Source: Candidatus Woesearchaeota archaeon (lineage in GTDB: Archaea > Nanobdellota > Nanobdellia > Woesearchaeales > UBA12501). Taken from it: a DNA stretch of 64,000 nucleotides. Shown one piece after another: positions 918 to 23,180 of the stretch. Within the stretch, counting starts at the first letter, position 1; each line of letters opens with the position of its first letter. Under the pieces are notes generated by a model, which saw only the letters and a list, made by a program, of their open reading frames with translations, did no database searches and was not told where the DNA came from. The translations under genes were made by a program, and so were the position numbers. Location: positions 184,718-248,717 of the forward strand of contig JAUSFM010000003.1 of NCBI GenBank assembly GCA_030651375.1, in the 5' to 3' direction.

Positions 918-977
918 GCTCGACCAAAACGGCCTCTCCGATGTCGGGGCGCTGCGCGCAAATACGAAGTACAAAAA

Positions 978-1049: not shown

Positions 1050-1133
1050 GGTTTGCTTTTCAAGAACGCCATTGTTTTATATAGTTTATGGTCAATAACA
1101 ATCTTTTTATTCTCGTCGAGAACAAAAACAGCC

Positions 1134-1547: not shown

Positions 1548-1695
1548 AACAGGCTTATAGAGCTTATAACGCCAAACAATCAACATAACCACCACCAAGT
1601 GACGAATAGATAGAAAGGTTTATATAGAAGCGGCGCTTTCATACCTTTAGAAACCATTAAATAGCTCTTACAGTAACCAAAAACGAGGAAACACA

Positions 1696-2532: not shown

Positions 2533-2553
2533 ATAATTTTTTATCTTTTCTCT

Positions 2554-3354: not shown

Positions 3355-3355
3355 A

Positions 3356-5553: not shown

Positions 5554-6127
5554 GTATATTTAAAGTGCCTTCATACCTATAAAGTTTACTGTCTCCATCG
5601 GGACTGCGACGGAATAAATTTTGTTGGATCCAATAGTTAAGAGTATCGATTGCAGGAGATATTTGATCGTCACGTACCGGACCGCCTTTACTCACATCAA
5701 TCTTAAAATTATGCACTGATCTTTGTCCGGTTAATACATCAAATCTTCCGTACATAACTGTCAAGGGTGAAGAATCAGGAACGCCAAAAGCTTTTTCATA
5801 TTCTGAACTGTTCAAAGTGTTATGATCAATCGCCACCCTGAAAAACGCAACCTGCCCTTGATATTTATCAGCCAATGTCTCAACAACTTGTTCCATACGG
5901 TGTGAATATTCAAGTGTCCCATCATTTTTCAAATCTGTGTCTGCTTCGTAAAATAGAACAACAACCGGCTTTGGATTGTGATAAACTTTTTGAGAGAAAT
6001 TGGTAGGTGTCAACTCTTCAAGCGGACGTGCCGCAGCAACACTGGATGCGCCAAAGACTGCGGCGCCGGCTGCCAAAGCTGCGCTAAGGCGCAAAAACTC
6101 ACGGCGAGTAACGTCTGTTAAGCTCAT
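5531..6127 (-). CDS. Tat-signal thioredoxin-like protein
   Basis: N-terminus TRREFLRLSAALAAGAAVFGASSVAAA is a twin-arginine signal; remainder (PVVVLFYEAD...) resembles thioredoxin-fold redox proteins. Confidence 0.55.
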   Translation of the reverse strand: MSLTDVTRREFLRLSAALAAGAAVFGASSVAAARPLEELTPTNFSQKVYHNPKPVVVLFYEADTDLKNDGTLEYSHRMEQVVETLADKYQGQVAFFRVAIDHNTLNSSEYEKAFGVPDSSPLTVMYGRFDVLTGQRSVHNFKIDVSKGGPVRDDQISPAIDTLNYWIQQNLFRRSPDGDSKLYRYEGTLNIHEVGELR

Positions 6128-6271
6128 TTTAAGGGTTTATAAAGCAAGGGGGTTTATAAGACTTGCGGATAGGGAGGATATGGGGGTTTGTTTGATTGTA
6201 GGTTAGGTGCAATATTACTCAGCACGTCCATGTTAGAAACATTTATTAATTTCTTATAAATAGATGATACT

Positions 6272-6961
6272 ATGAAAGATGAAATTTTATCTTATCGTGA
6301 AATGTGTAACAAGATTCAAGTGAATACCATTCAAAGAGGGATGAATTTTCATATAAAAAAAGGCATTTCTGTTATTTTAATGTCAGTCAGACCTGGTGCC
6401 CCATATGATGATGAGATAGACATTGGGAAAAATTTATTGATTTATGAAGGCCATGACGTTCAAAAATCAAAACAAAATCCTGAACCAAAGAAGATTGATC
6501 AACCTAGATGGACAGATAATGGAACATTGACAGAAAATGGCAAATTTGTGAAAGCAGTAGAAAATCATAAAAAAGGATTGATTCCTCCAGAAAAAATACT
6601 GGTTTTTGAAAAGTTAAATTCGGGGATTTGGTCAGAAAAAGGATTATTTTCTTTAATTGATTATGAGACAAGAATTTCAAATGATAGAAAAGTTTTAAAG
6701 TTTATACTCAAACCGATTGATGAAAATATTGATATTCCAAAAGGAAAAGATGATGATGAACATAATAGACTTATACCAACACAAGTTAAAGTAGCCGTTT
6801 GGAAAAGAGACAAAGGTAACTGTGTTCTTTGTGGTTCGACCAAGAACTTACATTATGACCATGATGTGCCATTTTCTAAAGGGGGAAGTAGTATAACTGA
6901 AAAAAATGTCAGAATTTTGTGTGCTAAATGTAATTTGAAAAAGCATGATAAGATAGAATAA
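6272..6961 (+). CDS. HNH endonuclease-domain protein with uncharacterised N-terminal domain (possible type IV restriction-like enzyme)
   Basis: C-terminus CVLCGSTKNLHYDHDVPFSKGGSSITEKNVRILCAKCNLKKH is a canonical HNH/ββα-Me motif; sits in AT-rich island. Confidence 0.65.
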   Translation: MKDEILSYREMCNKIQVNTIQRGMNFHIKKGISVILMSVRPGAPYDDEIDIGKNLLIYEGHDVQKSKQNPEPKKIDQPRWTDNGTLTENGKFVKAVENHKKGLIPPEKILVFEKLNSGIWSEKGLFSLIDYETRISNDRKVLKFILKPIDENIDIPKGKDDDEHNRLIPTQVKVAVWKRDKGNCVLCGSTKNLHYDHDVPFSKGGSSITEKNVRILCAKCNLKKHDKIE

Positions 6962-7026
6962 GAGGTTGTTTTATTTCATTCTTCCTCATTTTTTCTCGGC
7001 CTTTTTTCCTCGTCAAAAAGATCGTG

Positions 7027-7165
7027 TTCCGGCAAAACCGGAATATTTCCGGAATTTCAGTGTTTTTTCGGAAATATTCCGAAACAACCGGATGTTTTTC
7101 CGGTGGCGCCGAAAATCTTCCGGTTTTTTCACAGCAAGGCTTATTAAGCAGAGTATCTGATATTC
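7027..7165. promoter_or_regulatory. Repeated intergenic module copy 1: cluster of TTCCGG-N5-CCGGAA palindromes followed by conserved CAGCAAGGCTTATTAAGCAGAGTATCT (TATA-like)
   Basis: gttccggcaaaaccggaat, atttccggaatt, ttcggaaatattccgaa, ccggatgtttttccggtggcgccg; about 70 percent identical to 49444..49585. Confidence 0.6.
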
Positions 7166-7192
7166 TTGAAACCCGCTGCGCGGAGCGGAACA

Positions 7193-7384
7193 ATGGCAAA
7201 AAATGCATTGCCCCAGTTTGAGGGTTATACAGTCGATCTACGACTTAGACAGTTTAGGAAAATAACAAAAACAAAGATGGAATTTGTTGATTTTTATTCA
7301 GTTAAAGGGGGAAAAATGGTCTCGAGATATATCAACTTTTTGAATGATCAGTTGGAGAGGATTGCCCAATATCAAAAAAATTAA
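7193..7384 (+). CDS. Small hypothetical protein downstream of repeat module
   Basis: ORF 7166..7384; start MAKNALP at 7193 about 30 nt after TATA-like element. Confidence 0.3.
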   Translation: MAKNALPQFEGYTVDLRLRQFRKITKTKMEFVDFYSVKGGKMVSRYINFLNDQLERIAQYQKN

Positions 7385-7404
7385 GAGGAGCTATTAAAGG
7401 GAAT

Positions 7405-9327
7405 TTAAATTTTCATCCTTGATCTAAAATAGTTTTCTACTTCTTTATCTACAAAATAGACATAACATCCTTTAATTCCCCTTGACATCAATACCCTATA
7501 AATGTTTTTTACATATTCATCAAATTTAAGTCTATCCTTCTTTTTTTTCAACATTGGGTCTTTAGTTCCCCCAATATCGGTGATTAGGCACTTATTTTTA
7601 GAATCATATTTAAGATCAGGACCAACAATTACTCCAACATAATCAAATTCAAATCCCTGAACGGTATAGATACAACCAACCTGTTTTATTCCCTCAGGTT
7701 TGTATGCCCATTCATACCAAGGCACATACCCTTGTGGTGGCTTGATATTCCCATGTGTCTCCCAAGGCAAACTAAAATCTTCAATTTTTACATCCCTTAC
7801 CAGATTCCCAGTTTGATCAAGTTCTGTTGACCACGGCCAACAATAACCTGCAACAAGTCTTGCAGTGACTCCTTTTTGAGAATTTTTTTCAGTTATAGTT
7901 TGATAAAGAAGTTTAGGAGAATTAAATATTTGAAAATCGAAGTTATCTTCTTTTGTTAAAATCAGTTTTGTTGAAGTATGACCAAGAACAGATTCGAGCC
8001 AATCCAAATAGTTGTCAGAACCATTGCACCTGAATTGAGATAACAACTCTGTTTCTTCGATTCTTTTCCCAAGTTTTTTTGCTGATTCTCTAATCAGGTT
8101 AGTGTTTCCAACTTCCGCACCCCTAATAACTTGCCGGTCATCAATAAAAAAGATCGATGTTTTCGCACACCTAATCAGTTGTTCTATCTGCGGCATATTT
8201 GTTCTGTACTCTTTTTTGGTAAAACGATGATCTGATTTTTCACCAATTCTATGAGCTTCGTCAACAATCAAAATATCTAGTTCGTTTTCATTAATTCGAG
8301 CAGGAACAAAAGGATTTAAGTTAGTAAATAAAACTTTTGCATTAATGTCCCCCACTTTTTGCCCATGTTCCATCTTATATTTGATTGCTTCAATCAAAGG
8401 TTTAGATCTAGATGCAAAAAAAATCTTATATTTCTTTTCTTTATTTGCTGCAAATTCAGCTAAAATATGCAGTGCAATCACTGTCTTTCCAGTTCCGGGT
8501 GCACCTTTCACTATTATTGCACTGTTTTCTTGGTTATGTTCTGCTTTTTTTACTTTGTCGATGATAAGATTTCTTGCATAAATTTGATCATCAAGCAGAT
8601 TAAAATCAGATTCATTTTTTATAACGTTTGAAGCATTATCTAAAAGTTTTCTTGAAGGTCTTTTAGGAGATTCCATAAATTTGTTAAAAATATCAAATCC
8701 GTCTTTTTTACTAAGTAAAAATTTTAGTCTAGCTGCTAGTATCTCGATGTCACTTTTCGTGTAAATTGGAAACTTTGCTATGAGTTCTTTATATCGGGGG
8801 TCAAATAAACCTTCCATTCCCTCAAAGTTGTAGTTTGGACAATAGACACACCCAACAAGACAAGTATCACTTTCTTCAAATATTTCTACAAACCCGATCA
8901 GATAATTATGATAACCCTGAACCTGTTGCGAAGGGTGTGCAACTTTTCTTTTGTCGCCCCCAGTATAAGTTTCCACAAAGTTTCCTTCTGCAGAAAGCGC
9001 TTCAACTGATTCCCATTGTTTCATCTCAATATGGATGATCATCCCTCTTCCTTCTTCATTTTTTCCAAACAATAAACAATCAATTCTTTTTTGCGTATAA
9101 GGAACTTGATACTCAAAAGAAAGATAAATATCCTGCAATTCACTTAATTCAAGAATGTTTTTGATCTCTTTTCCACTTTCCCTCCACGATCTACGTTCAG
9201 AATCGCCGGGTTTTCGACCATACAATCTCAAAAACTCGTTTTCCATCTTATCTGTGAATTTGTTTAGTACTACGTCTTTAAAGAACTCTTGTTGAGGTGC
9301 ATCATAAAGTAGTTCTCTGTTTAGCAT
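7405..9327 (-). CDS. DUF2075-family SF1 helicase-like ATPase with N-terminal PD-(D/E)xK nuclease-like domain
   Basis: 640 aa; N-terminal IDCLLFG...IIHIEMKQW (D...ExK); Walker A GAPGTGKT; Walker B ILIVDEAHR; C-terminal GIKGCYVYFVDKE typical of DUF2075. Confidence 0.75.
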   Translation of the reverse strand: MLNRELLYDAPQQEFFKDVVLNKFTDKMENEFLRLYGRKPGDSERRSWRESGKEIKNILELSELQDIYLSFEYQVPYTQKRIDCLLFGKNEEGRGMIIHIEMKQWESVEALSAEGNFVETYTGGDKRKVAHPSQQVQGYHNYLIGFVEIFEESDTCLVGCVYCPNYNFEGMEGLFDPRYKELIAKFPIYTKSDIEILAARLKFLLSKKDGFDIFNKFMESPKRPSRKLLDNASNVIKNESDFNLLDDQIYARNLIIDKVKKAEHNQENSAIIVKGAPGTGKTVIALHILAEFAANKEKKYKIFFASRSKPLIEAIKYKMEHGQKVGDINAKVLFTNLNPFVPARINENELDILIVDEAHRIGEKSDHRFTKKEYRTNMPQIEQLIRCAKTSIFFIDDRQVIRGAEVGNTNLIRESAKKLGKRIEETELLSQFRCNGSDNYLDWLESVLGHTSTKLILTKEDNFDFQIFNSPKLLYQTITEKNSQKGVTARLVAGYCWPWSTELDQTGNLVRDVKIEDFSLPWETHGNIKPPQGYVPWYEWAYKPEGIKQVGCIYTVQGFEFDYVGVIVGPDLKYDSKNKCLITDIGGTKDPMLKKKKDRLKFDEYVKNIYRVLMSRGIKGCYVYFVDKEVENYFRSRMKI

Positions 9328-9328
9328 A

Positions 9329-9691
9329 TTAATACTCCGTATATTTTTTGTTTAAACCTTTCACTGTCTCAACTGGATATTTTTGCTCATTTTTCTTCAT
9401 TTTGTGATCAAACTCAGTAGTAAGATCTATATCATATCGTTGTGCCAATCTGAGCAAAAAGTAGAATACATCAGCCATTTCTTCGGTTATTTCCTTTCGT
9501 TTGTTTAAATCATGAAACATACTTTCAACTTCTTTTTCGGATTTAAACCTAAAATGTTCCAGTAGTTCACTGGCTTCAGTTATGATTCCTATTGCTAAGT
9601 CCTTAGCATTATGATATTGATCCCAATCTCGTTCATCACAAAACGTTTTAACTTTTTCTTTTAATTCATTAATATTGGTTTTGTGGTCCAT
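9329..9691 (-). CDS. MazG-like nucleoside triphosphate pyrophosphohydrolase (small all-alpha NTP-PPase)
   Basis: 120 aa from MDHKTNINEL; EASELLEHF and EEMADVFYFLLRLA match MazG/YpjD-type motifs; stop TAA 1 nt before DUF2075 ATG (TAATATG). Confidence 0.65.
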   Translation of the reverse strand: MDHKTNINELKEKVKTFCDERDWDQYHNAKDLAIGIITEASELLEHFRFKSEKEVESMFHDLNKRKEITEEMADVFYFLLRLAQRYDIDLTTEFDHKMKKNEQKYPVETVKGLNKKYTEY

Positions 9692-9871
9692 AAGAGTAGT
9701 TAGATTAAAAGAGAGGTTTATAAAACTTGTCACGCTTCCAAAGCCTAGATTATCTGCTGATTTATAAAGACTAGATTGACAAAATGACAAGATATAAATA
9801 CCACCGAGAGTAGTATAATAAATTAAGAATGAATGTAGAAGAGGTGAAATACTAAATAAGATTCTTTTAGA

Positions 9872-10150
9872 GTGATAGATAAAAGTGATAGCGTGTCTCC
9901 TATGATGAAAACCGAATTTATGCAAGAAACAAAGAGATTTCAAGAGTTTGAAGATAAGGCTCTGAGCCAAGTTATGGAAGTTTCTAAAAGATTATTGGAA
10001 ACGTTTAGGTTTAGAAGGTTTTATGACTTATCTGTTTCTGAAGAGATTAATAAAAAGACACTTGAGGGAATAAGAGAATTCAGAAATAAGAATAAAATAT
10101 CACTCGATGATAGAGAGAGCTATCAAAGATATTTAAAATTAGTAGATTAG
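9872..10150 (+). CDS. Small hypothetical protein
   Basis: 92-aa ORF divergent from MazG-like gene. Confidence 0.3.
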   Translation: MIDKSDSVSPMMKTEFMQETKRFQEFEDKALSQVMEVSKRLLETFRFRRFYDLSVSEEINKKTLEGIREFRNKNKISLDDRESYQRYLKLVD

Positions 10151-10719
10151 AATTTTCTCTTCATCATCCATTGTTTAATTTCGGTTTCTTTTATTCTATC
10201 AGATTTAGCAAGTGGAATGATATTTAAACCTAACTCTTCACACGTCTTTAAAAATCCTGTGTCTCCTGAGTGAACGATGGTTATACCTTCAGCAAGAAAG
10301 CCTGCGATTATTATCACATCGTTCGGACCGATATGAAAACGCTGATTTTGTGTTTTTTCAACTACACGCTGATTATAAGTTTGCACATGTTGTTCTAGAA
10401 GATTATCAGATTCACGAGTGATTTTTTCAAGAAGAAAGGTGTTGCATAGGTTTTGCCAAGCTTCTTTTGCTTCTATTTTTGTAAAATGATACTGGTTAAT
10501 CAGGACACCAATGACCTCAGAAACTGAGATTTCATGATAATAAAATAAGTTTGGAGGAAAAGCAAAATGCCCTTTCTTAAACTGGTTAAAATCTCCTGCA
10601 AAAGCAACAATAATGTTTATAAGGGTACTTGAGTCTAAACCATTTTTTACAATACCCTTGATTGAAAGCTGGCCTGAAAGGACATAATAGGTACTTTCTG
10701 TTTTTTGATTTGTTGTCAT
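10147..10719 (-). CDS. Hypothetical protein (possible nuclease-like)
   Basis: Start MTTNQK; C-terminal DVIIIAGFLAEGITIVHSGDTGF acidic cluster; no firm family assignment. Confidence 0.35.
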   Translation of the reverse strand: MTTNQKTESTYYVLSGQLSIKGIVKNGLDSSTLINIIVAFAGDFNQFKKGHFAFPPNLFYYHEISVSEVIGVLINQYHFTKIEAKEAWQNLCNTFLLEKITRESDNLLEQHVQTYNQRVVEKTQNQRFHIGPNDVIIIAGFLAEGITIVHSGDTGFLKTCEELGLNIIPLAKSDRIKETEIKQWMMKRKF

Positions 10720-10941
10720 AAATTGCCCCTTTAGTATTAAATCAGAAGCAGCCAAGGGATTGCCCACTCCCCTGGACCACCCCTTTATGATACAAAAAAT
10801 GATTAAACTATTTAAAGATTGTGTTTAAAACTCACCTTTTCCATACTGTTCCACACACTTTTATCTTTCCTATTAATCACAATATTTATCCATCCCCCTG
10901 TCCACCACACTGCACACGTTCGCCGCAATCGCCCACACACC

Positions 10942-11151
10942 TCACTTCCCCCACCCTCTTACCTTTGTCCCACAGCCATACATCTTTCTTTCATGCCAGC
11001 AGTCGCAGCAGAGCCGTGCGATTGATTCGTTGACCGCATTACGCGCCTTTGCCCAGGTTAGACCGTGTTTTAACTGAATTCTCTGTTTGAGTAAGAATAA
11101 TTCATCATCAACGTCGGCGAGAATTTGTTGTTTTTGCGTTAGTTTAACCAT
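10942..11151 (-). CDS. Small hypothetical protein, possibly ribbon-helix-helix/antitoxin-like
   Basis: 69 aa; MVKLTQKQQILADVDDELFLLKQRIQLKHGLTWAKARNAV pattern. Confidence 0.25.
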   Translation of the reverse strand: MVKLTQKQQILADVDDELFLLKQRIQLKHGLTWAKARNAVNESIARLCCDCWHERKMYGCGTKVRGWGK

Positions 11152-11258
11152 GCTACCACCTCAAGCTTCGCTCATTGATTATGTGATGGTTATATATCTT
11201 ACGCATATCACGATATTATGCCGACAACGCCACAACAGTTATAAACCTCATAGGTTTT

Positions 11259-11795
11259 ATGATCGAAATGGGGCTTGACATCTTCGAAGATATTGTTGCA
11301 ACTTGGTTACAAACTAACGGATATTTTATGATGAACAATATTAGGTATGGTCATAACCAAGAGATTGATGTTTTAGCAACAAAATTGGGAAAGAATGGAA
11401 TTATTCACATTGAAGTTTCCTGTTCATCAAATCCTAGTGATATTGTGGGAACAAAGAATCACGAAAAAATTGGTTATGAACAAGCAGCAATAAATTTTGC
11501 AGAAAAGAAATTCTTTAATAAAGAAGTCAAGGGAAAAATTCTTGCTTTGTCTGGTCAGGAACCGAAAGAGAGATGGTTTATCCATGCAATAATGGACGAA
11601 CCGAAGCAGTTGGATATACTACGCGAAAAAGGTATTAAACCGATCAACATTAAAGATGTGATAAAAGATATTCAATCATCAGATCTGAGGGATTCTTCAG
11701 GAAATAAGAGGATAAAACAGCTTTTTGATATAATCAAAAAGATTAATGAGCAACAGAGCATCTCCACCCCATCACATCAACATCCACCTTTATGA
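11259..11795 (+). CDS. Hypothetical protein with restriction-endonuclease-like (Hjc-like) core
   Basis: NQEIDVLA...GIIHIEVS resembles PD-(D/E)xK core strand pattern. Confidence 0.35.
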   Translation: MIEMGLDIFEDIVATWLQTNGYFMMNNIRYGHNQEIDVLATKLGKNGIIHIEVSCSSNPSDIVGTKNHEKIGYEQAAINFAEKKFFNKEVKGKILALSGQEPKERWFIHAIMDEPKQLDILREKGIKPINIKDVIKDIQSSDLRDSSGNKRIKQLFDIIKKINEQQSISTPSHQHPPL

Positions 11796-11798
11796 ACA

Positions 11799-12404
11799 TC
11801 ACGCATAGTCCTTTTGATTGAGTATTTTATTCTTGAAATGGGTCAGCGCGCATTTTTTGGAGCAGAAATAAACTTGGCGACCCTTCCAAGTTCTTTCGTT
11901 ACACCTAAACATATAAAAGAGATATAGTTTTTGTGCGTCAGCTTTGCAATTTGCGCATGATATACTTTTTTTCTTTTTTAGGCATACGCCTTCAAAGCAA
12001 GATTGAAGCAATGCAGGAGTAAGTTTTTTCTTTTCTTTGGTGGTGAGGCGAACACCGAGAAACGTGCCGATGCGAGTATTGATATCGGGGTACTTTGAGG
12101 CGTTTAGTTTCTTGATTTGAGGAGAGGAAATCTTGCGAATACAATCGAAAGAGCAGACGCGTTCACCTGTACTGATAGCTGATGAATTGAGAAGATTTTG
12201 TTTATAAAAAGAGAATTCGAATTGTGCACCCTTTTTTCCACAGACAGTACAGGGGTTTGATACGCCATTCTTGGCGAAGGTGATGACTTTATCCCAGTTA
12301 ATATTCAGTTCGTCAAATTCTGTTAAGTTATTGATAGGAGAAGAATCAAAGGGATAAAAAGTAGTATACAAAAAATTTTCAATTTTGTTTTTTAATATAC
12401 TCAT
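11799..12404 (-). CDS. Cys-rich (zinc-finger-like) hypothetical protein
   Basis: Start MSILK; two CxxC...C clusters (CTVCGKKG, CANCKADA...CSKKC). Confidence 0.4.
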   Translation of the reverse strand: MSILKNKIENFLYTTFYPFDSSPINNLTEFDELNINWDKVITFAKNGVSNPCTVCGKKGAQFEFSFYKQNLLNSSAISTGERVCSFDCIRKISSPQIKKLNASKYPDINTRIGTFLGVRLTTKEKKKLTPALLQSCFEGVCLKKKKSISCANCKADAQKLYLFYMFRCNERTWKGRQVYFCSKKCALTHFKNKILNQKDYA

Positions 12405-12728
12405 GCTGCACACCCCCATAAAGTTCCGACAGGGGAAGAGTATAAAAAAGTTTCTTGTCACTGAAAAGGAGGTTGATTAACAGTGATTTAAATAAGGAGA
12501 TAATCCCGTCACAACCTTTAAATTACCCATCCTGTCTTGTCCAGTGGTTGGATGTGCCATCACGCAACCATTCCACACCTCCAGAAAAATATTCAGGGCA
12601 CATTAGGAGCATTGTGATTAGATGATGACCGGGTGTGCAGTGCCACATGCTATGAGGTGGCATGCAGAAAGAGGTATGGGTGAACTACCGCTGGCTGAAG
12701 CCCACGAGTTCAGGCGCTGCCTGCGCCC

Positions 12729-13250
12729 TTAAAGTAATTTCTCCATCTCGAGCATGAATTCTTTCGCTCTGTTCAGGGAAGTGGTTGCCTTGCCATGGAG
12801 TTCAGCTTCTTTCATTTCGTATTGGACATCGCTTCTCTTCTTCCTTTCAAAGTCAAAAGTCTCAATCAAAGCGTCTGTTTTTATGCCGGCGAGCGCCTCC
12901 TGTTGGGCTTTTTCATATTCTTCAAGCAGTGATTTTTTCAGTTTGTTTCTGACAAAGACAATGAGGGCATCGGCAGTTATTTTGTGGGATATCTTTTCCC
13001 CTATTTTGTATCCGAGTTTGTAGAGGACAGCATTGGCACTATAGTACATCGCATAGTAGGACGTAACAATAATCCACAAATCAGATTTCTTGTTTTGAAG
13101 CAGGAAACCAGCAATCTCAAGGCTATCCTTGGCATTTCGGCGCAAGATGGTATAAATAGGTTCCTGAAAGGATTGCTTTTTTAGGAGCCCGTCTTCAATG
13201 TATGCACGGACATTTTTTTCAGCTTCCTTAATTCTTGGTTCATCGAGCAT
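12729..13250 (-). CDS. HEPN-like domain protein, partner of upstream nucleotidyltransferase
   Basis: 173 aa all-alpha; 11-nt overlap with MNT gene; canonical Rx4-6H not clearly visible, call from context. Confidence 0.4.
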   Translation of the reverse strand: MLDEPRIKEAEKNVRAYIEDGLLKKQSFQEPIYTILRRNAKDSLEIAGFLLQNKKSDLWIIVTSYYAMYYSANAVLYKLGYKIGEKISHKITADALIVFVRNKLKKSLLEEYEKAQQEALAGIKTDALIETFDFERKKRSDVQYEMKEAELHGKATTSLNRAKEFMLEMEKLL

Positions 13251-13809
13251 TCGCGATCATCCGGTAATAGTCTTCTATTCCGAACAGAATAATGTTGTTT
13301 TTTATTGCTTCTGAAACAACGGTAAATTCTGTAGACTTGAGCATTGTCTGGAAATCAGCATACGTAATGGACGTGAGATGAATAGGTAAAGGAAGGAGAT
13401 TAGCTTGTTCTTCTATCTGTTCTGGCCGGTCGGTGATGAGAAGCAAGTCAATATCAGAATGGGTTGTTTGCTTTTTTTTCGCATGAGAGCCAAAGAGGAG
13501 TAAAATAAACTGTTGGTTTATTCCTCTGAAGCGGGAGTACAGTACGTTAAAGTTCTTATTGCGCGTTAATTCCTGCAGCCGGTGGTGTTCTACCGTAAAA
13601 ACAGAAGCATTGAAGTTTCGGTTAAAAGAACAGATGATGGTGTTTCCGTGCCGCACGGCGCTGATAACCCCTTCGCCCTGCAGTTTTTGCACGGCACCAT
13701 ACGCTGATTTGTAGTTTATTTTTCGTTTGAGAGCAATCTGCCGGATACTCAAATTGAGCTCTTGATGCTCTATAAGCAGGCGGAGGATGTTCAGTTTTTC
13801 ATTATCCAT
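13240..13809 (-). CDS. Nucleotidyltransferase (MNT) domain protein with N-terminal wHTH
   Basis: LLFGSHAKKKQTTHSDIDLLLI matches minimal nucleotidyltransferase GS-x9-DxD motif; N-terminal HTH-like region. Confidence 0.6.
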   Translation of the reverse strand: MDNEKLNILRLLIEHQELNLSIRQIALKRKINYKSAYGAVQKLQGEGVISAVRHGNTIICSFNRNFNASVFTVEHHRLQELTRNKNFNVLYSRFRGINQQFILLLFGSHAKKKQTTHSDIDLLLITDRPEQIEEQANLLPLPIHLTSITYADFQTMLKSTEFTVVSEAIKNNIILFGIEDYYRMIANAR

Positions 13810-13984
13810 TGTTAACCATACTAGTATGGTTTGTAACCATATATTTAAATGTTTCGGTACTGAAACAGTTAAAAGTGGTGAAATGCATGGCCAAAAAGGA
13901 GGAAATGAGTCGGCTACAGATTGTAGTCAACTGAAAACATATTTAGGAGTGGCAAATAATTCATCCCCGCCCAACTCGTTCTCT

Positions 13985-14398
13985 TCACGCTTCAGCCGCA
14001 CATTCAGTATACGAATCAGCAAGGCCGTAGCGGTCGCTGACGGCGGTTGTTATTTGCTGGGTGAAGTTTTCTGTATGGGGAAGCAAGGATATGAGCTTAT
14101 TCCTCGCTTTTCCAACGAATTTGAGCTGGATCGTGAGCGCATTCTTTTCAAGGCGCGCTTTGAAATCGCAATGGATGATATTTTTGAGGGTGTATTTGAC
14201 GACGCCGAAAATGCGTGAGGCATCAAATATCCGTACGCCGGTGACAAAGCCGAGGTCGTCAATATCCGCGACAAAGTTGTGGAATTCAACGGATTGCTTA
14301 TAGTTCCGATTTTTTATTTTGAAGGTGAGAATATCATGTGCATAATCGTATATAATCTCTCCTTCATCTTTCGCGTCAAGGTGTTTGTTGGTTTTCAT
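13985..14398 (-). CDS. DUF2283-family small protein
   Basis: IIYDYAHDILTFKI...DIDDLGFVTGVRIFDAS resembles DUF2283 N- and C-terminal signatures. Confidence 0.5.
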   Translation of the reverse strand: MKTNKHLDAKDEGEIIYDYAHDILTFKIKNRNYKQSVEFHNFVADIDDLGFVTGVRIFDASRIFGVVKYTLKNIIHCDFKARLEKNALTIQLKFVGKARNKLISLLPHTENFTQQITTAVSDRYGLADSYTECAAEA

Positions 14399-14730
14399 GG
14401 GAGTGTGAAATGAGGAATTTCAACGGTGTCCATAAAGGACACAATAACGATTTTGTTTTTTTCTTTTTCAAGGATGAGCTTTCGATAGCCATCATTTCGG
14501 CGGTAATACGCTGCGTAACGGCCATTTTCTTGGATATATACTTTTCTTGGATTTTCTCGGACTACCATAAAGGTAAGCTCTTCTTCTTTAAAAACTTTTC
14601 TTAGGGCCTCTGACAGATGGTCGAACGCATGAGGCGAAACGATAACAGGGTGATTATGTACGAGCAATTTAAAATCCTTGCTTTCAATCTCTTGTATCGG
14701 TCGTGTAGTATAAAATTTCACATATTTCAC
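14395..14730 (-). CDS. DUF4258-family protein (toxin-like partner of DUF2283)
   Basis: HAFDHLSEALRKV motif; ATGA overlap with downstream DUF2283 gene. Confidence 0.5.
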   Translation of the reverse strand: MKYVKFYTTRPIQEIESKDFKLLVHNHPVIVSPHAFDHLSEALRKVFKEEELTFMVVRENPRKVYIQENGRYAAYYRRNDGYRKLILEKEKNKIVIVSFMDTVEIPHFTLP

Positions 14731-14857
14731 ATTAGTGATTTAATCAAAACAGGTTTATATACCTCACGCGCATCTGTCCAGTGTCCAGTGGGTATGCGTT
14801 TGCGGCTTATAGCTTGCTGTTTGCTGTTTTAATGCAGAATTGGCCTGTCCAGTTGTT

Positions 14858-16315
14858 TTAGTCCTTTCCCACCATCTCCCGTATCTTCTCCACGATCCAT
14901 ATCATGCCTTCGGTATCGCGAGCGCAGTACGTTTCAAGATATTTGCGGGTTTTCCGTTTTTCCTCGTCGCTCATCCCCTTGAATGTCATGATGAAGAACG
15001 CGGCGCTCGCATCGTCGCCTTTGCCAATTTCGAAATCATCATATCCCTTGCCGATGAGTACCGGCATAACTGCCTTGATGGATGCACTTCCTTTCTGGTT
15101 GGGATGGTAGTAATGAAAGCCGCTAAATGGTGCGTAGAGGTCAACAATGCGGCTGATGACTGACCCAACCCATGTGGAATATTCAGGGAACGCCTCGGCG
15201 AGTTTGTTCAGCACTCCTTTTTCAAAGGATTGATTGTACACAACAATGCTTCCGGCGCTGCCCAGCGCTTGTTTCAGTTTTTTCAGAAGCAGTGGCCGCG
15301 GATCCTCTCGGCCATCAGCAAGGAATGAGTGATGGCTTGTTTTTCCGTTGGCCACGACGTGCACAGAAAACTGGAAGGGTATCGCCTGGTACGGCGACGT
15401 GCCATCGTACAACGGCACAGCAGTGCTGAATGTCTCAAAGTCAAAGTAATACAGTGGTTCTTTTAGTTGGGCAAGGAATGATTTTAATTGTTTCGTGTCT
15501 ATGTGGGGTTTATTCGATTGGATGCAGTCAATTTGAATCTTCTGCTTGGCGTTGAGCTTGGTGCCGGCCGGCACATCCATGAGCGATAGAATGTTGGCTT
15601 TGAAAAGCTCGTGCGACGCCTTGCCGCCTCGGTATAAATTAAACACGTTGTGTTCCGGCAGGAAATTCCAGCACTCTTCACACACGCAGTCGTGGCCATT
15701 TTCACAGCCGTTGCCGATGGTTGTTTCCGGCGGCGTTGGACTGTTGATGATTGCAAGAAGCGCCTCCACTTTGCCGGGCACACTCGGTAAACAAAGATCG
15801 ACCTGCGCGGTGATTTCTTCCTGCACAAGCAGTTCCGCAGGATTGATGGCACCGTGTTTCACATAGTCTTTGTTGACGTGCATCAGAAAGCATTTTCGTA
15901 TGGCAATGCCCGCTTGGGTGTAACAATATTTCTGAAAGGAAACATCCTCAATGTGCTCATCCTTTACCGAGCTGGAACTTTTCACTTCAACAATGTCCCA
16001 CTGGTTGTTTTCCACGGGAACAAGAATGTCAGCGCGCGCGTAGAGATTTCCCGCAACAAGACCGGCTTCAAACAGCGGCTTTCTCTGTTTCAGCGCTTCT
16101 GCGGTTTCCTTGATGTTGCGAGCGAATTCTTCAGAAAGCGAAATCCCGCTGGGAAACAATGTTTTAGCGAGATGCCCCACTTCATGCCCTTGGTCAAAAA
16201 TAAGCTGGGTGGCGGCGGTGTGCTTCGGAAGCCGCTCGGGCTGGTGAAACATCATCCACAGATGGCGCGGACAGGCAAGACCAGTTGCATATTTTGATTT
16301 GGTGAGGAAGCGCAT
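14858..16315 (-). CDS. DUF2779-like protein: N-terminal Cas4/RecB-like PD-(D/E)xK nuclease fused to C-terminal DEDD-type 3'-5' exonuclease
   Basis: ADILVPVENNQWDIVEVKSS (D...ExK); LYYFDFETFS (DxE exonuclease I motif); 485 aa. Confidence 0.6.
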   Translation of the reverse strand: MRFLTKSKYATGLACPRHLWMMFHQPERLPKHTAATQLIFDQGHEVGHLAKTLFPSGISLSEEFARNIKETAEALKQRKPLFEAGLVAGNLYARADILVPVENNQWDIVEVKSSSSVKDEHIEDVSFQKYCYTQAGIAIRKCFLMHVNKDYVKHGAINPAELLVQEEITAQVDLCLPSVPGKVEALLAIINSPTPPETTIGNGCENGHDCVCEECWNFLPEHNVFNLYRGGKASHELFKANILSLMDVPAGTKLNAKQKIQIDCIQSNKPHIDTKQLKSFLAQLKEPLYYFDFETFSTAVPLYDGTSPYQAIPFQFSVHVVANGKTSHHSFLADGREDPRPLLLKKLKQALGSAGSIVVYNQSFEKGVLNKLAEAFPEYSTWVGSVISRIVDLYAPFSGFHYYHPNQKGSASIKAVMPVLIGKGYDDFEIGKGDDASAAFFIMTFKGMSDEEKRKTRKYLETYCARDTEGMIWIVEKIREMVGKD

Positions 16316-16358
16316 AGAATATACAGAAGGCAGGGATTATTTAAGGGTTTCCCATATT

Positions 16359-19300
16359 CTACGTCGTGCCTGCGCTGCTCGTCACTTCCCCATAGATCTC
16401 ATCCACGCGTTGGGCAACCAAGTTTCCTAATTCAGTGTAGATGCCGCGGGTAAACGCGTTGTCACATTCAGGAACGTGGTTGCATTGGGCGGCGTATGCT
16501 GAAACTTTTGCAGCAACCTCTGGTTTATGGGCTTGGACGCAGTCAACGGTGATGCCGTTGAGGCAGATAAGTTCCATATCGTTTGCAAATCGCTGGGCAA
16601 GTTGAGTACCATCAGCGGCAGTCGGGAGCGTCGTAACCGCCGGTGGCGCAAGTTTTTTCTCAAGCCGGAGATCGAGGAGCACATCAGAAATCGTGCCGAG
16701 AAGCGTGTCAACTTGAGCGTCATACGCGTCAGTGCACGAAGTGATAGCGGTACAGAGCCCGCGGTATTGGTCGTCTTGCGCAAGGACAAAGTCTTTATTG
16801 GTGTTGAGGCAGTCTTCGGTTATGCCGCCCGGACAAATTCTGCTGACACGCTCGACAAAGCTGCCGGCGTATTGCGCGCCGGCTTCTTCTGGTGATGCGA
16901 CAGCAGCGACAGTTGGTGAGGCAGCAGCATACTGTTCAACCGCCTGCAGCACTGTTGCCTTGAATGTGCACCAGTCAAACAGTGGCCCGGGATCTTCATG
17001 GCCACCATACACGCCGTTGGGTTGGCCAGCGGTAAATCCTTCGCAGGAATAGCCAGAGGTGCCGTCGACATACTGCGGCCTGCCGATGGTGCTGTGGAAA
17101 TAGATGTGGTCAATGCTGATGCCGTAGCGTACCATGATTTCGGCAACGGTTTTTGCCAGTGTTTTCATTTGCGCATCGGGGAATGGTTCCCAGTATCTGG
17201 TCCCGCCAGGATAGCTCCACGCTTTTCCGTGCACCATGTTGAGCTGGTTGCGCACATCAATACATCCAGAACAGGGACTGTTGCCGGCATAATTCGCGAG
17301 GTCGATGCCGATGGCTTGACTGTTAATTCCGGGCTTTGCGCAGGCAGGATTATTGGCGCTGCAGCCTGCATGATACGTGATAATATCTTCTTGTTCGATT
17401 TGGATCATCGATCCATCGCGGTCAATGATGAAGTGCGTACCTACTTTTTCTCCATCGCTGTTAACTCCTTTGAAAAAGATATTTTTGTACGTGTCATACG
17501 CTGACGAACTGCCTGCAGTGATGTGAATAACGATGCTGCTGATTTTGCTACTTGAACGTATGGGCCGATCTACCGTGTCAGCGCGCGCATGGAACGCACA
17601 ATCATCGTCAGGTCCGCAGGCAGTTGCCGGATTTAAGTCGACAGAACCATAGCTTCCGAGTGTCACGATCTGCGGCGTGAATGGCCCTGAAATAACCGGC
17701 CCAATAGTTCCGGGGGTTGGTGTTGATGCGCCGGTGCCTGGAGCAGATGGCCCCGGAGAAACTGGTGGAACACTTGCCGGCCGCTGCGCACAGAGCGTCG
17801 CTGCCTGCGCTGGATTTTTCACAAAGGAGTCTTTGTCAGACACACAGGCATACTGCGCGCTATTCGGCGCAGGGCAGGGCACGCAGAAATTTCCAAATCC
17901 GCATTCCATATCGGTTGCACCGCCGAGCTTGCCGTTGCAGTCGCAAATATTTTGGTTGTTTGACGGGTCAACATACAATCCGTTGTTTTTGTCGGTGGTG
18001 GTGCACGCCTCGTAGCCGATGCACGAACCGGATGCAGAGCAGTAGTTGAGCCCTTGCGCAATGCCGCAGCGGCTTGAGGTAGAGGTACCCACACAATTAC
18101 ATTCTTGGTTCACGAATGCGTTGGATGTGCATGCAGGCAATTCGCCGGTGGCAGTCACTTTACTGCATGCAACTGGAATGTCAATCGCGTCTGCGCCGGT
18201 GAATTCGAGCGCCTTGCCGCCGAACCGCGCGACCGCGTCGCCGGGAATGCAGGTGTCCGGTCCGGGAATGTCGTTTTCAAATCGGGTCTTGCACGGGCGA
18301 AGCTCAAGAGATAATTTCCAGTGCACGGGATTTTGTGCTGTGATGTCGTCGCACTGGGTTGCCGCTGCGCGCTGTTGTGCGAGGAAGGCGATGCCGTCAG
18401 CGTAGAGTTTTCCTGGAAGAACCGAACCGTACTCTGGCTGGATGCGAAGCCCATGGTACGAAATAGTGCCGAGCGCGCTGTCGAAGCGGTAGATATTATT
18501 TTTCAGCAGGGCGGTTGTCGACGGTGAAAGTCCGGACGCGGAAAGTTCTGCGTCAGTGCAGGGGATAGCACCCGGCACAATTTCAAACTGGTAATTTCTG
18601 CTTCCTTCAAGGAGTTTTGCAAGGTCATCGCTCAACGATGCGTGCTGCACACTGTAGCAGAACGCGTCTCTGCCTGCGGCATCTTTGGTCCGGAACATCA
18701 ACAGGCCAACCGCGAGATTTTCGCGTGAAGGGTAACTAACATCAATCGACGGAAGACTGCGCAGGGGAAGTTTATTTCCGCCAGCTTCTGCAAAGTCTGG
18801 ATTGGTGTACGCAACAGTGCGCGCGTATCCTGCGGCGCCGCCGTACATACCGCGAGTGATCATATCTTCAGTCAAGACGACGCTGGGAATGGTGAACCGG
18901 GAAACGCCATCTTCAACAATCGCGCGCACCGCCATGGAGCGCGCGGCAGATGACGCAGCAGACGAACTGGTGGGTGCTGAAATCGTGCTGCCTGCGTACC
19001 GTTCGAGTGGAATGACATTACCGTTCTGGTCGCGCAGTTGGTACATCAGGAAGTACGGCACCTGCTGGCCGGCAAGTGAAAGTGCCTGTGCAACGTCGGG
19101 ACGGATAGTGCCTGCACGGTTGTTCGGGCTGTATTTTTCAAGCTCGACATCGACGTCAATCGGCTCGTTAACCATGAACACCGATTTGACCGGACGGGGC
19201 CGTTTCAGGAACGCTGCGCGCCCGAGTTGGCCGGCTGCGATTTCGCATTGGTATCCAGAAAGTTTGAACTGGCAGGAAAGCGGCGGCTCATCGCCAATCT

Positions 19301-22300
19301 GCTGAATTTCGATTATTTTTTCTTCAGTCTGGAAATTTCCCTGATTGTTCCGCCACTGCCAGTATAAGCGAACACGGTCAAAGCGATACGGAAGTTCTGC
19401 CGGAACATATGCGTCCATGTCGCCGTATTCGCCGGCTGCAAGCACGCCGGTGCCCATGAAGTTGGTGATGGGATAGCGTTTCTCGCCAATCTCTGCGCAA
19501 TCGCATTTGTTGTTGGCAAAGCCGTAGATTTGTTTGCAGTTTGTCGGGCTTGCAGTGCAGATAAGTTCTGCGCCGTAGGTTATTTCAGAGCCGGCGACAA
19601 GTCCGCCGGCGAGATGGTAAATAAATCGCGCGTTGCCGGTCACGGGATTGCTCGTCATGAATCGCCGCGTTTGTTTTGGATACAAAAAGCCCTCGCTCGC
19701 AACCGGCACGCTGCCGATGCCCGTCAAGGCACCTTCGATGTCAAGGTCGAAATCGCCGGTGAATGCGTAGAAGCACGCCGAGTGAATCAGGCTGCGTTCA
19801 TTAAGGATACTGTACAAATTTGATTTTCCATACCGGTCGGAAATCGCCGTGTGCATGTGCTCGCCGGCAGAGGAAACTGCTTTGAAAAAGCCGCTGATGC
19901 CCTGAAGCCGACCGCCGCCACCGCCGCCGGAGCCCGCACCGTAGCGCTGGGCAAAACATTTGACTGCTTCAATCAGGAAATCGCACAGTGTTTCTGAAAA
20001 CGCGCGCCGGCACATGCCGGTACTTCCTTCGCCTGTCAACAAAATGGATTGGAAGCACTGCCGGAACTGGACAAAGACGCGCTGGATAAGTGCAATATAG
20101 GTGTTGATGGCGGGCAGGCACATGCACCGGATTGAATTGACAATGCTGGACGTCGGGTCAACAACATAGTCGCGGTTCACCCGCGGCACGAGTCCGTATT
20201 TTTCCGCTTCTGCGCGTGTCAGGATTTTTTGGGGGAATTCAGGAACAAATTGTTCAAGCCCGCGGTCGTAGCCGACCACTTCGCCGGTTGCCGGATCTTT
20301 TCGCTCTTTCCGGTCAGCGTAGAATGTGCCGAGTTCCCACTGGCCATCTGCAATAAGCCGGAACCAGCGGTCGCGGATGGTGACTCTTTTTTTGTTGAGT
20401 GTTGGCTGGCTGTTGATTGCTTCAGTCACTTCAATGGTGCCATCGCGGGCAGGAAGTGTGCCGCCGTAGCGCACGCTGCCGACTAAGGGACGGACTTCTT
20501 CTTGGCAAATCGTTGAAGCGGATTCAACCGCCTGTCCGATGGGCCCGCCGCAGCTTTGTGCAGCGCGGGAAGATTTGGTTGCAGTGTCATAGATACATTC
20601 AGATTGCCGAAGCTCGTTGGTAAACCAGCACGCGCTGTCCCATTGATTGATGTATTCCTGCGCGCATTGTTTTTCCGGACTTGCGCCGGGCACTGTTGGA
20701 ATTCCAGAAAACGGAGTGAGCATTGACGACGATGAAGAGGAAAGCAATTCATCAGCAGCGTCGTACACTACCCCTTCGTTCATGCCGGGATTGCCGCACT
20801 GCGCTTCTTTTGCGTCGGCATTGGTGCTGCCGAGATCATAGTGCGCAGGATTAGTGGTGCCATCAGACTGAAGCGCGCGTGTCTTTGCCATGCTTGCCTG
20901 CGTGATGTGCACGGCGAGTGTGGGCGCTGCGGGACAGTACACGCGGTCGCATATCCATTTCATGTAGCGTTCGTAGTCCTTGCGTGACTCGCGCGACTGT
21001 ATGCATTGCTGTTTTTCAGGGCTGTCAGCTGCGTCGGCGTAGACGCCGGTGCAATCCAGTTTTTCGATGACAAGCTTGTAGTAGTACGCGGCAAAGCTGC
21101 CGAGGCAGGTTACAAATGTGCCGATCAAGACAAATTTCAGGTACTGCAAAATCTGGTTGAGCGTTTTGATTGCATCATCAAAAAAATGGATGGAATCTTT
21201 GAGCAGCCATGTGGGGAGCCAGCGCTCGTCAAGCTCAAGGTCGAGTGTCGTGACGACGTCAGTGCAGTGGAGTTGGGTGCGCGTAATTTTTCCAGCTCGG
21301 CCACCATACACGCCTGATGTTGAGGAAGGAGAGAGTGGTTGTTGGTAGTTTTGATATGAAGGACGGCCAGACACGCCGGAGATATACTGCGTGCCCGGTG
21401 GCGCCTGCGCTCCTGATGTTGCGGGTATGCCAGTGCCCATGCCGCTGGCGTCTTCGTATTCAAACAGCACTTCCATCTGCAATGGAATTTTTATGAGCAA
21501 ATCTTTTTTCGCGCTGATGTCACTGAGATTTTTTTGGAGGTAGGGAAGCTGGTTGAAGTTCACGACAATGCCGCCGACGGTGTAGTCATCACTCCAGGTT
21601 ACCTGCACGGGCTGACGCACGAGTGTTTCCGGATCAAATGCATAATCACGGCGGGCTTCAGTGCTCTGATGTAGTACGCGGAAACGAGGCGGCGACAAAA
21701 TAGTTGCACGGTCTGCGGGGCCGCGCCATTTCAGCTTGACGTTGAAGCCGAGCTGGGCAATGCCGTTGCGGAGATGCGCGGGGATGACGGTCGATGGAGT
21801 AATTTTTGATTGCTCAACTTCCCAGAAACCGCCGCTGCCGCACTTCGCAAACACAACCGACACCGGACCAGAAGTGGAACTTCTTCCAAGATCGTCCACA
21901 ACAAAAATCTGCAGCCTATTTTCAAACGTGCTGCCAACATCGTATTGCCTGCCGAAGGTGTTTGCCGACGAATCAAGCGGTTGCTGGGGCAGGTACTGCG
22001 TCAGGTTGGTCTGCACAAATTGAGTGAGGAGCACATCAATTGAAAATCTGCCGTCGGGTCCAGCAACAGCAGTATATTCTTTTTGCGGCGCCGCGCGCAC
22101 TGAAAGGCTTTTTACCAGATCGAGCAAGCTTGTGCTCCACGCGGAATTGGGAGTCACTTCATCATTGACGGTCACAAACACAACCGCGCCGGGCGTTGCA
22201 TTGCCGCGCACGGTGACTTTTTGTGTGTAGCTCGGGTTGAGTTCATTGAGGTTGTGCGAAAAGAGCTGGGGAGCAGGGCCGAGAATTTGAATTGTTTTTG

Positions 22301-23150: not shown

Positions 23151-23180
23151 GGTTGTTTCGGTTTTGCCCTTTTTATGTTT

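Follow-up and report, generated by a model that had tools for sequence, protein, structure and literature searches.

A probable core-gene-flanked variable hotspot with layered, defence-rich cargo in a Woesearchaeota archaeon

Introduction

In Pseudomonas aeruginosa, the core defence hotspots cDHS1 and cDHS2 are flanked by core genes, and their transfer by homologous recombination has been proposed (PMC10250203); defence-island hotspots have also been described in Escherichia coli (PMC10121019). Here we analyse a segment of the chromosome of a Candidatus Woesearchaeota archaeon (DPANN), which lies at positions 6172-16358 of a 64,000-nucleotide stretch of contig JAUSFM010000003.1 (assembly GCA_030651375.1; hereafter the window). 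We consider this segment to be probably the cargo of a chromosomal variable hotspot flanked by core genes, and not a self-mobile element.

Like the bacterial hotspots, the segment combines conserved core flanks, a varying and defence-rich cargo and an atypical composition with no single class of mobile element. It differs from them in its host, a DPANN archaeon with a small genome, and in its comparators, which are different species or genera and not strains. The segment is also small (5-10.6 kb) and part of its cargo encodes secreted proteins; no tRNA or tmRNA gene is adjacent, and a gradient in guanine-plus-cytosine content (GC) suggests a preferred side of entry. Classical genomic islands and integrative elements at tRNA genes share its atypical composition and accessory content. 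Unlike those elements, the segment lacks an integrase and att direct repeats, its edges carry no tRNA, and it appears to be a mosaic of differently aged layers. Defence hotspots are already known as a kind; the lineage and the pairing of a MazG-like gene with a DUF2075 gene are the new details.

DPANN archaea have tiny genomes. They have been reported to be poor in CRISPR and restriction-modification (R-M) systems and enriched in compact candidate systems (PMC12988326). Several cargo genes resemble characterised bacterial systems. Nhi of Staphylococcus epidermidis and Nhi-like proteins protect bacteria from phages, and both are described as single-gene systems (10.1101/776245; 10.1101/2022.05.11.491447). 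TagI, ScoA3IV/Sco5333 and TbiR51I are modification-dependent restriction endonucleases of SRA-HNH architecture (PMC4333417, PMC6212794).

Results

Conserved flanks bracket different genes in each relative

Four related genomes were reached through orthologues of two flank proteins, the thioredoxin-like (Trx-like) protein on the left (50-69% identity) and the giant protein on the right (identities of 74, 73, 62 and 52%). The loci compared are L003 and L013, which are one 39-kb contig; L004 and L012, from the same sample; L011; and L014, the most distant. The Trx-like gene heads a syntenic block (198, 527, 223, 266 and 278 aa, then HIT) that is kept in L003 and L014. Both this block and the giant-gene block are seen in L003/L013 and L014, while L011 and L012 show the giant-gene block alone and L004 covers just the Trx-like gene with the beginning of its neighbour. 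On the left, DNA homology ends at window position 6181 in L003 and 6164 in L004, which places its limit (about 6171) some 45 nt ahead of the Trx-like start codon. Homology among the relatives starts again at about 16378, within the giant gene.

The genes between these edges differ from genome to genome. In L003/L013, about 10.6 kb between the same flanks encode two secreted cysteine-rich (Cys-rich) proteins, a PDDEXK_1 protein, several unknowns and a module of HaeIII-like restriction endonuclease, C5-methyltransferase and Vsr. The L014 segment consists of about 4.9 kb of paralogous secreted proteins. L012 reads, from the giant gene, a 712-aa secreted protein, a 181-aa protein, a minimal nucleotidyltransferase (MNT), a 69-aa protein, a GNAT acetyltransferase, DUF2779 and a 111-aa protein, after which the contig ends; in L004 a 143-aa gene and a PLD-like gene precede the Trx-like gene. 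Window genes from 6272 to 13250 have no tblastn match at any of these loci (L003, L004, L011-L014). A preliminary description of the window, made from the sequence alone, had delimited an accessory island at 6150-16320, and these coordinates coincide almost exactly with the comparatively defined segment. The presence/absence comparison that it proposed shows that the block is not conserved, with four relatives bracketing different genes between the same flanks. Orthologue searches found no genome closer than about 74% protein identity; the species-representative genomes gave a sole match of 29%, in KSB1, and the JGI metagenomes hold relatives only as contigs of at most 2 kb.

An AT-rich layer occupies the Trx-like side

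The composition baseline was taken from 1-kb windows outside 6-16 kb (mean GC 0.496, standard deviation 0.037). The 1-kb profile falls into a trough of 0.32-0.37 at 6-12 kb (z -3.5 to -4.8), with 0.50-0.57 at 16-45 kb and 0.43-0.51 in the remainder, and the GC-normalised tetranucleotide distance of 6-12 kb gives z 5.6-7.8. The GC drop at 6-12 kb is far beyond chance. The sliding-window GC and tetranucleotide check suggested in the preliminary description thus finds a composition that is not uniform. The sharp drop that had been claimed for the whole of 6150-16320 is present over about 6172-12600 (z to -4.8), a strongly AT-rich layer of GC 0.348, and absent from the rest, where a mild depression gives way to a native DUF2779 gene.

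This division is visible in several measures. The block at 12.6-14.8 kb has a GC of 0.423 (z about -2), comparable to that of the left flank (0.444), and the tetranucleotide z is 1.4 for the 12001-15000 window; the overlapping 10501-13500 window, which takes in low-GC sequence, gives 4.1. The DUF2779 gene is host-like, with a GC of 0.50, a third-codon-position GC (GC3) of 0.58 and z 0. GC3 is 0.22-0.31 for the genes at 6272-11795, 0.41 for the Cys-rich gene and 0.36-0.53 for the genes at 12729-14730, and flanking genes mostly lie at 0.43-0.64, with a few left-flank genes at 0.33-0.41. The AT-rich part is therefore the stretch of about 6172-12600 only. It has no counterpart at any locus compared, except for the MazG-DUF2075 cassette described below, which recurs in five further contigs (L015-L019).

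The cargo is a mosaic, with the most foreign-looking DNA beside the Trx-like gene

Window and L012 share the MNT (83% amino acid identity), DUF2779 (79%) and the 111-aa protein (75%), and the core genes of the two genomes are similarly diverged (72-74% for the giant protein, 78% for the 653-aa protein). Positions 14342-16351 of the window are collinear with L012 at 77% DNA identity; the first 57 or so nucleotides of the DUF2283 gene fall inside this stretch, after which the L012 contig ends. The genes shared with L012, the closest relative, are also the compositionally native ones. These observations suggest that DUF2779, the 111-aa gene with the start of DUF2283, and the MNT gene form an older layer, whose divergence from L012 is the same as that of the core genes. 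The shared genes are ordered differently in L012, where DUF2779 is placed elsewhere in the segment, and DUF2779 is missing from L013 and L014. Judged from these comparisons, the island appears to be a mosaic of layers of different age and not one acquired block.

The full gradient can be followed in two genomes, that of the window and that of L013; in both, GC declines steadily towards the Trx-like gene from the giant-gene end, and the short contig of L004 is likewise AT-rich beside the Trx-like gene. The most foreign-looking DNA therefore adjoins the Trx-like promoter. L004 also carries a truncated duplicate of this promoter with about 26 codons of the gene (752-863 versus 1363-1500). Its identity to the intact copy is 85%, and over 46 nt it agrees with the window promoter at 98%; a single inserted gene (143 aa) lies between the two copies. 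This duplicate looks like a recombination footprint at the entry side of the hotspot, as single-crossover or partly illegitimate recombination in the Trx-like 5' end would leave exactly this arrangement. A truncated Trx-like open reading frame (ORF) in another locus, L008, was set aside as a second insertion footprint, as it belongs to a distant lineage.

A MazG-like/DUF2075 cassette recurs in unrelated DPANN contigs

Within the AT-rich block, the only DNA homology found elsewhere is window 7217-9693, which corresponds to a cassette of 2.3-2.5 kb. It occurs at 73-75% DNA identity in L015-L019, which are unrelated DPANN contigs, and its other neighbours differ at each. The MazG-like gene stands directly upstream of DUF2075 in all five of these close contexts and, in the window, stops 1 nt before the DUF2075 start, as in an operon. 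A small convergent ORF is present at three of the five loci (L015, L016 and L019), where the products are 44-57% identical to the 63-aa protein of the window with 22 invariant columns. A longer, TTG-initiated reading of the MazG-like gene (213 aa) was rejected as an over-extension, given that the homologues have 120-123 aa and an independent gene call agrees. Although its copies differ by about 25% in DNA sequence and their host flanks have a GC of 0.42-0.48, the cassette stays at 0.31-0.34 throughout; this low value may thus be a property of a circulating gene pool and not only a sign of recent arrival.

The DUF2075 protein matches the PADLOC models PDC-S41 (E 4.8e-21), AbiO and Nhi, the Nhi match being partial. 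Residues D83 and E101-x-K103, the Walker A motif (GPGTGKT) and the DEAH motif are invariant across 50 homologues. In an AlphaFold2 model (predicted local distance difference test score, pLDDT, 77) the N-terminal domain has an a-bbb-a-b order, with D83 and E101-x-K103 on consecutive strands, which makes it a candidate PD-(D/E)XK-type nuclease domain; a NERD match (E 0.0085) falls below the cut-off. A Foldseek search with the whole model retrieves SLFN11 (1.2e-9), RecD, Dna2 and Upf1. The protein resembles Nhi in its DUF2075 superfamily 1 (SF1) helicase, which follows the candidate PD-(D/E)XK-type N-terminal domain, in its structural neighbours Upf1 and Dna2, which were reported for Nhi, with RecD in addition, and in its location in a defence neighbourhood. 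Unlike the single-gene Nhi system, it is encoded in a conserved operon with a MazG-like gene, often with a small convergent gene beside it; its host is an archaeon, and its defence role is a predicted one.

More than 4,500 DUF2075 homologues were found, the best of them (60-78% identity) in Woesearchaeota, Nanoarchaeia, Aenigmarchaeota and Formosa. This spread over several lineages indicates horizontal circulation. The pairing with MazG reappears in two of four distant plasmid contexts (Halalkalicoccus, of the Halobacteria, and Priestia, of the Bacillota), while in the Bacillus and Spartinivicinus plasmids the MazG-like gene is unpaired or disrupted by an insertion sequence, and no MazG-like gene lies beside the DUF2075 genes of Hymenobacter and Methanosphaera; these four contexts rule out a universal pairing. 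Our literature search found no paper that names DUF2075 together with MazG. We tentatively propose that 7193-9691 may be an undescribed multi-gene anti-virus module, in which the MazG-like enzyme, the Nhi-like DUF2075 protein and the small protein act together. In such a module the MazG-like enzyme would work alongside the nuclease-helicase and could, for example, remove modified or excess (deoxy)nucleoside triphosphates needed by invaders. A DUF2075 protein 64% identical to that of the window is encoded at 4602-6485 of L020 (IMGVR_UViG_GVMAG-S-1041346-124_000001), a contig labelled as a giant-virus metagenome-assembled genome; this could be a wrongly binned fragment of DPANN origin or a genuine viral copy. 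In the phage collection, DUF2075 proteins reach at most 35% identity, in four records.

A predicted methylcytosine-dependent endonuclease

The 229-aa HNH protein at the Trx-like edge belongs to a populous family of proteins of about 230 aa. Its own match to Pfam SAD_SRA is marginal (E 0.01), and 11 of 30 family members match this family (best 1.2e-6); the family profile matches the SUVH5 SRA structure 3q0b with E 0.0025. In Foldseek, its AlphaFold2 model (pLDDT 89.8) finds as best hits SUVH5/6 SRA-methylated DNA complexes (E 1.5e-6 to 1e-5, TM-score 0.65), followed by AspBHI, MspJI, ScoMcrA, AbaSI and PvuRts1I. The N-terminal SRA assignment is thus confirmed at the level of the modelled fold. 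The HNH domain has two CxxC motifs, H194/H197 and N212, with C184, C187 and C217 invariant and H197 nearly so. On this basis, the protein is a predicted methylcytosine-dependent (type IV) restriction endonuclease. It shares with TagI, ScoA3IV and TbiR51I an N-terminal SRA and a C-terminal HNH domain, the two CxxC pairs, a length of about 230 aa and a defence context. A search of solved structures with its family profile, however, missed TagI, and the nearest structures are the plant SUVH5/6 SRA domains. No relatives were found among viral contigs.

The C5-cytosine methyltransferase, HaeIII-like endonuclease and Vsr genes of L013 (24477-26801; L003 8715-9632) lie at the same hotspot as the window SRA-HNH gene. 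A C5-methyltransferase R-M module and a methylcytosine-reading SRA-HNH enzyme look like functionally opposed alternatives at one locus.

Toxin-antitoxin-like pairs and other cargo

The winged helix-turn-helix (wHTH)-MNT gene lies upstream of the HEPN gene, which overlaps the MNT stop by 11 nt, and its product has the GS-x10-DxD motif (G107-S108...D119-x-D121). This arrangement, the motif and the matches to PDC-M05A and PDC-M05B are those of the HepT/MntA type VII toxin-antitoxin (TA) system and of PADLOC PDC-M05. The pair departs from HepT/MntA in two respects: the HEPN protein has no R-x(4-6)-H anywhere, the expected site reading R139-SDVQ-Y144, and the MNT has an extra N-terminal wHTH. A further departure is seen in L012, where the same MNT precedes 69-aa and GNAT proteins and not HEPN. 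The HEPN gene has no homologue in L012; at 11994-13314 of that locus the MNT (83%) is followed by the 69-aa protein and the GNAT acetyltransferase, a TA-like pair that replaces HEPN, so that the partner has been swapped. The DUF2283 gene overlaps the upstream gene for its presumed 111-aa partner by 4 nt.

Family scans and motifs bear out most of the gene labels of the preliminary description, namely the HNH, MazG-like and DUF2075, HEPN and MNT, DUF2283, DUF2779 and Cys-rich proteins (Table 1). Its 'Hjc-like' nuclease fold for the 178-aa protein has only sub-threshold matches, to UPF0102 (E 8.7e-4) and Mrr_cat (0.0088), with NCBIfam YraN at 9.1e-5, far below the cut-off. The DUF4258 label of the 111-aa protein does not hold, as this protein has no match in Pfam, even at E up to 5, or in NCBIfam or PHROGs. 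To the earlier list we add the SRA domain at the HNH N-terminus, three small ORFs and a possible PIN domain in the 206-aa protein. The 220-aa Cys-rich protein, the 111-aa protein and the three small proteins match no family in the Pfam, NCBIfam and PHROGs scans, and PHROGs returned generic HNH and MazG families only. Sequence searches of solved structures with single proteins (206-aa, 178-aa and DUF2075) were uninformative. The DUF2779 protein combines a Cas4-like PD-(D/E)XK N-terminal domain with an RNase-H-like C-terminal domain.

Table 1. Features of the segment and its edges, in window coordinates.
Feature	Position	Strand	Basis or remarks
Left flank core: TAT-signal thioredoxin-like (Trx-like) protein, 198 aa	5531..6127	-	Pfam TAT_signal and Thioredoxin, weak
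Conserved Trx-like promoter, two TTTATAAA-type archaeal TATA-like boxes	6128..6171	-	alignments among relatives
Variable hotspot cargo, 10,187 bp (probable)	6172..16358		gene content different in every related genome
SRA-HNH protein, 229 aa	6272..6961	+	PF01844 HNH E 8e-8
Palindrome-rich repeat of about 140 nt (CCGGAA/TTCCGG motifs)	7021..7159	+	between SRA-HNH gene and cassette
Small conserved protein, 63 aa, convergent with DUF2075	7193..7384	+	third cassette gene in some hosts
Nhi-like nuclease-helicase (DUF2075/Schlafen-group-3 SF1), 640 aa	7405..9327	-	PF09848 E 1.4e-88
MazG-like all-alpha NTP pyrophosphohydrolase, 120 aa	9329..9691	-	PF12643 E 6e-14; ExxE...ExxD motifs
ORF, 92 aa (82 aa in Logan call)	9872..10150	+	no family match
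206-aa protein (190 aa in Logan call), possibly PIN-like	10147..10767	-	PIN E 0.015, below cut-off; no other match
ORF, 69 aa, preceding 206-aa gene	10942-11151	-	
YraN/UPF0102/Mrr-like protein, 178 aa, PD-(D/E)XK nuclease-fold candidate	11259..11795	+	sub-threshold
Cys-rich protein, 220 aa	11799..12461	-	13 Cys, five C-x2-4-C motifs
HEPN-domain protein, 173 aa	12729..13250	-	PF05168 E 1.1e-4; PDC-M05B 2.9e-6
wHTH and minimal nucleotidyltransferase (MNT), 189 aa	13240..13809	-	Polbeta 8.8e-8; PDC-M05A 1.5e-11; MntA 4.9e-6
DUF2283 protein, 137 aa	13985..14398	-	PF10049 E 1.7e-5, above cut-off
111-aa protein, presumed DUF2283 partner	14395..14730	-	75% identity to L012
DUF2779 protein, 485 aa	14858..16315	-	PF11074 E 1.3e-43; Cas4 HMMs 2e-5
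Right flank core: 2263-aa giant protein with Amidase_2 domain	16359..23150	-	synteny in L011-L014

Signs of mobility and a dispersed repeat

The preliminary description had seen no integrase, transposase or flanking direct repeat, and the scans agree. Family scans of the interval find no integrase, transposase, replication, capsid or packaging gene, flanking direct or inverted repeats are limited to chance-level short matches, and tRNA and Rfam scans find no tRNA or other RNA gene inside the interval or at its edges. Rfam reports three tRNAs only in the whole window. The tRNA-Gly noted 5 kb upstream is where it was placed (tRNA-Gly(GCC), 978-1049, 5.1 kb away), and it has no bearing on the island; six syntenic core genes lie between.

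The repeat of about 140 nt that follows the SRA-HNH gene closes with a TATA-like GGCTTATTAAG (GGCWTATTAAG for the dispersed repeat), which lies about 35 nt ahead of the small ORF. Three copies, about 71% identical, occur in about 68 kb: that of the island, one at 49438-49575 (+), just after tRNA-Val, and one at 17991-18128 of L001, about 3.2 kb to the left of the window start. RNA folding gives z -3.7 / -3.3. No copy was found in the relatives' loci or in viral contigs, and Rfam has no credible match at 6900-7250. A 17-mer from the repeat core has 21 matches in viral contigs, which were treated as chance, none of them carrying the full element (best partial E 0.016). The repeat could be a promoter/operator module, a MITE-like (miniature inverted-repeat transposable element) insertion or a recombination site.

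Host and flanking genes

Two aEF-2 proteins of the window, at 910 and 845 bits, exceed the curated cut-off of 738. They are paralogues encoded at 38068-40314 (-) and 41094-43238 (-), about 0.8 kb apart. An archaeal-type AMP/thymidine phosphorylase is also encoded in the window, and the archaeal TATA-like TTTATAAA boxes of the Trx-like promoter are a further sign of an archaeal host. A bacterial-type sigma-70 factor of 740 aa at 51063-53285 (+) has regions 1.2, 2, 3 and 4 and a C-terminal helix-turn-helix, and matches the NCBIfam model MzaA (anti-phage-associated sigma factor) below its cut-off. Sigma-70 is already documented in Woesearchaeota (PMC8204110). A bacterial host, which this gene had prompted us to consider, is ruled out by the archaeal aEF-2 and AMP phosphorylase together with the known Woesearchaeota sigma-70.

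On the right, window 16359-37392 (-) is a run of giant genes (2263, 653, 276, 1784, 1204 and 772 aa) that is kept in the relatives. An Amidase_2 (peptidoglycan amidase) domain in an archaeal protein of 2263 aa is notable and may relate to interaction with bacteria. In L011, two genes are inserted at 5173-5710, where the core genes for the 276-aa and 650-aa proteins adjoin; they encode a 68-aa protein and a 106-aa protein that carries a zinc ribbon. The GC of this insertion is 0.42 in a background of 0.54-0.58, and the window has a 44-nt spacer there (25143-25186); the insertion may mark a second micro-hotspot.

Discussion

Alternative origins of the segment

Before the segment is read as hotspot cargo, four other explanations have to be weighed. 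One integrated mobile element (a provirus, an integrative plasmid or an element like an integrative and conjugative element), since deprived of its integrase, might make up the whole segment or its AT-rich 6.4 kb; this would fit the sharp GC and tetranucleotide anomaly, the phage relatives of the HNH and MazG-like proteins and the IMG/VR contig with its 64% identical DUF2075 homologue. We nevertheless regard this as decidedly unlikely, given the lack of any integrase, transposase, replication, capsid or packaging gene, of flanking repeats and of a tRNA junction; moreover, only the 2.3-2.5-kb cassette is common to other genomes, with different neighbours each time, and the viral-contig scans are empty apart from the L020 DUF2075. 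The region might instead be native and vertically inherited, its low GC reflecting local mutational bias or relaxed selection. The constant low GC of the cassette across diverged hosts does suggest that this property is partly intrinsic; yet the AT-rich genes have no counterpart in any relative's hotspot, the closest cassette homologues are spread over several DPANN lineages in unrelated contexts, and the tetranucleotide signature differs even after GC normalisation, which together make vertical inheritance highly unlikely.

A recombinase encoded elsewhere could also insert cassettes site-specifically at the 140-nt repeat or at the Trx-like promoter, loosely as integrons do at attC/attI. The repeat lies precisely where the SRA-HNH gene gives way to the MazG-DUF2075 cassette, folds stably and has at least three copies in about 68 kb, one of them beside tRNA-Val, and L004 carries its duplication at the Trx-like 5' end. 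We consider this explanation unlikely, as the island has a single copy and its other cassette junctions none, the relatives' hotspots lack the repeat, no recombinase is seen in the window, and the TATA-like box at the repeat's end, before a gene, would suit a promoter/operator or MITE-like role as well. An assembly or binning artefact, in which an AT-rich fragment of another organism was joined to the contig, is barely credible. An independent Logan assembly of the same sample covers window 1-14780 and 14762-26315 at 100% identity in two contigs; the first runs through the left junction and all of the AT-rich block without interruption. The break between them, a 19-nt overlap at 14762-14780 in the spacer that separates DUF2779 from the 111-aa gene, lies near the right composition edge and would speak for a join. 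Population heterogeneity or a coverage effect is a more likely cause of it than a chimera, which is very unlikely because collinear L012 homology (14342-16351, 77%) spans the broken spacer. AT-rich cargo is also found at the same site in relatives.

Several points, in addition to the Logan break, weigh against the reading of the segment as defence-hotspot cargo that we favour. The turnover rate and order of events would be drawn from only four comparators at 52-74% protein identity, which are not strains, and we assume that L012 and L004 belong to a single genome and represent its two ends, with the middle of that segment unseen. The PIN, YraN/Mrr and NERD assignments are sub-threshold, the HEPN protein lacks the Rx4-6H motif, and the 111-aa, 220-aa and three small proteins are family-less. 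Defence function is here assigned by family membership. The most distant locus, L014, holds paralogous secreted proteins at the site and not defence genes, and the giant-proximal cargo of L011-L013 likewise encodes secreted proteins; because of this, the site is a general variable region, with defence enrichment mainly on the Trx-like side. As for the recombination mechanism, it rests on the GC gradients and one footprint in a 2.1-kb contig (L004), and the window itself holds no second copy of the Trx-like 5' end.

A working model of the hotspot

The description of the segment as a defence/addiction island is supported, in that nucleases and TA-like pairs dominate the cargo, with the defence role taken from their families. 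Recognisable systems in the window are the SRA-HNH protein, DUF2075 (PDC-S41) and MNT/HEPN (PDC-M05), and in L013 the restriction endonuclease, C5-methyltransferase and Vsr module; defence-type genes elsewhere are the MNT and GNAT genes of L012 and the PLD-like gene of L004, with none in L014. By analogy with their families, we infer roles in innate immunity and addiction for the cargo genes. Foreign DNA that contains methylcytosine would be cleaved by the SRA-HNH enzyme, the Nhi-like nuclease-helicase and its MazG-like partner would attack or starve replicating invader DNA, and the MNT/HEPN-like and 111-aa/DUF2283 pairs would work as TA-type modules.

New cargo would enter piecemeal by recombination at the Trx-like side, beside the 5' end of the Trx-like gene, which we infer to be the most likely entry route, and the conserved flanks would permit exchange of the whole segment by homologous recombination. 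The lack of mobility genes, together with the conservation of the flanks, suggests piecemeal gain and possible whole-segment exchange.

The locus does not overturn current concepts and is, as a defence island, fairly ordinary. It does offer candidates that can be tested: an archaeal SRA-HNH enzyme, and a conserved MazG-like/Nhi-like operon that would extend a validated single-gene bacterial defence. If the cassette genes act together, they would represent a new variant of that defence. Also testable is a hotspot that is occupied in one genome by a predicted methylcytosine-dependent nuclease and in a related one by an R-M system with a C5-methyltransferase. For DPANN archaea, the locus would provide a comparatively anchored example of how immune genes may be stored and exchanged without visible mobile-element machinery.

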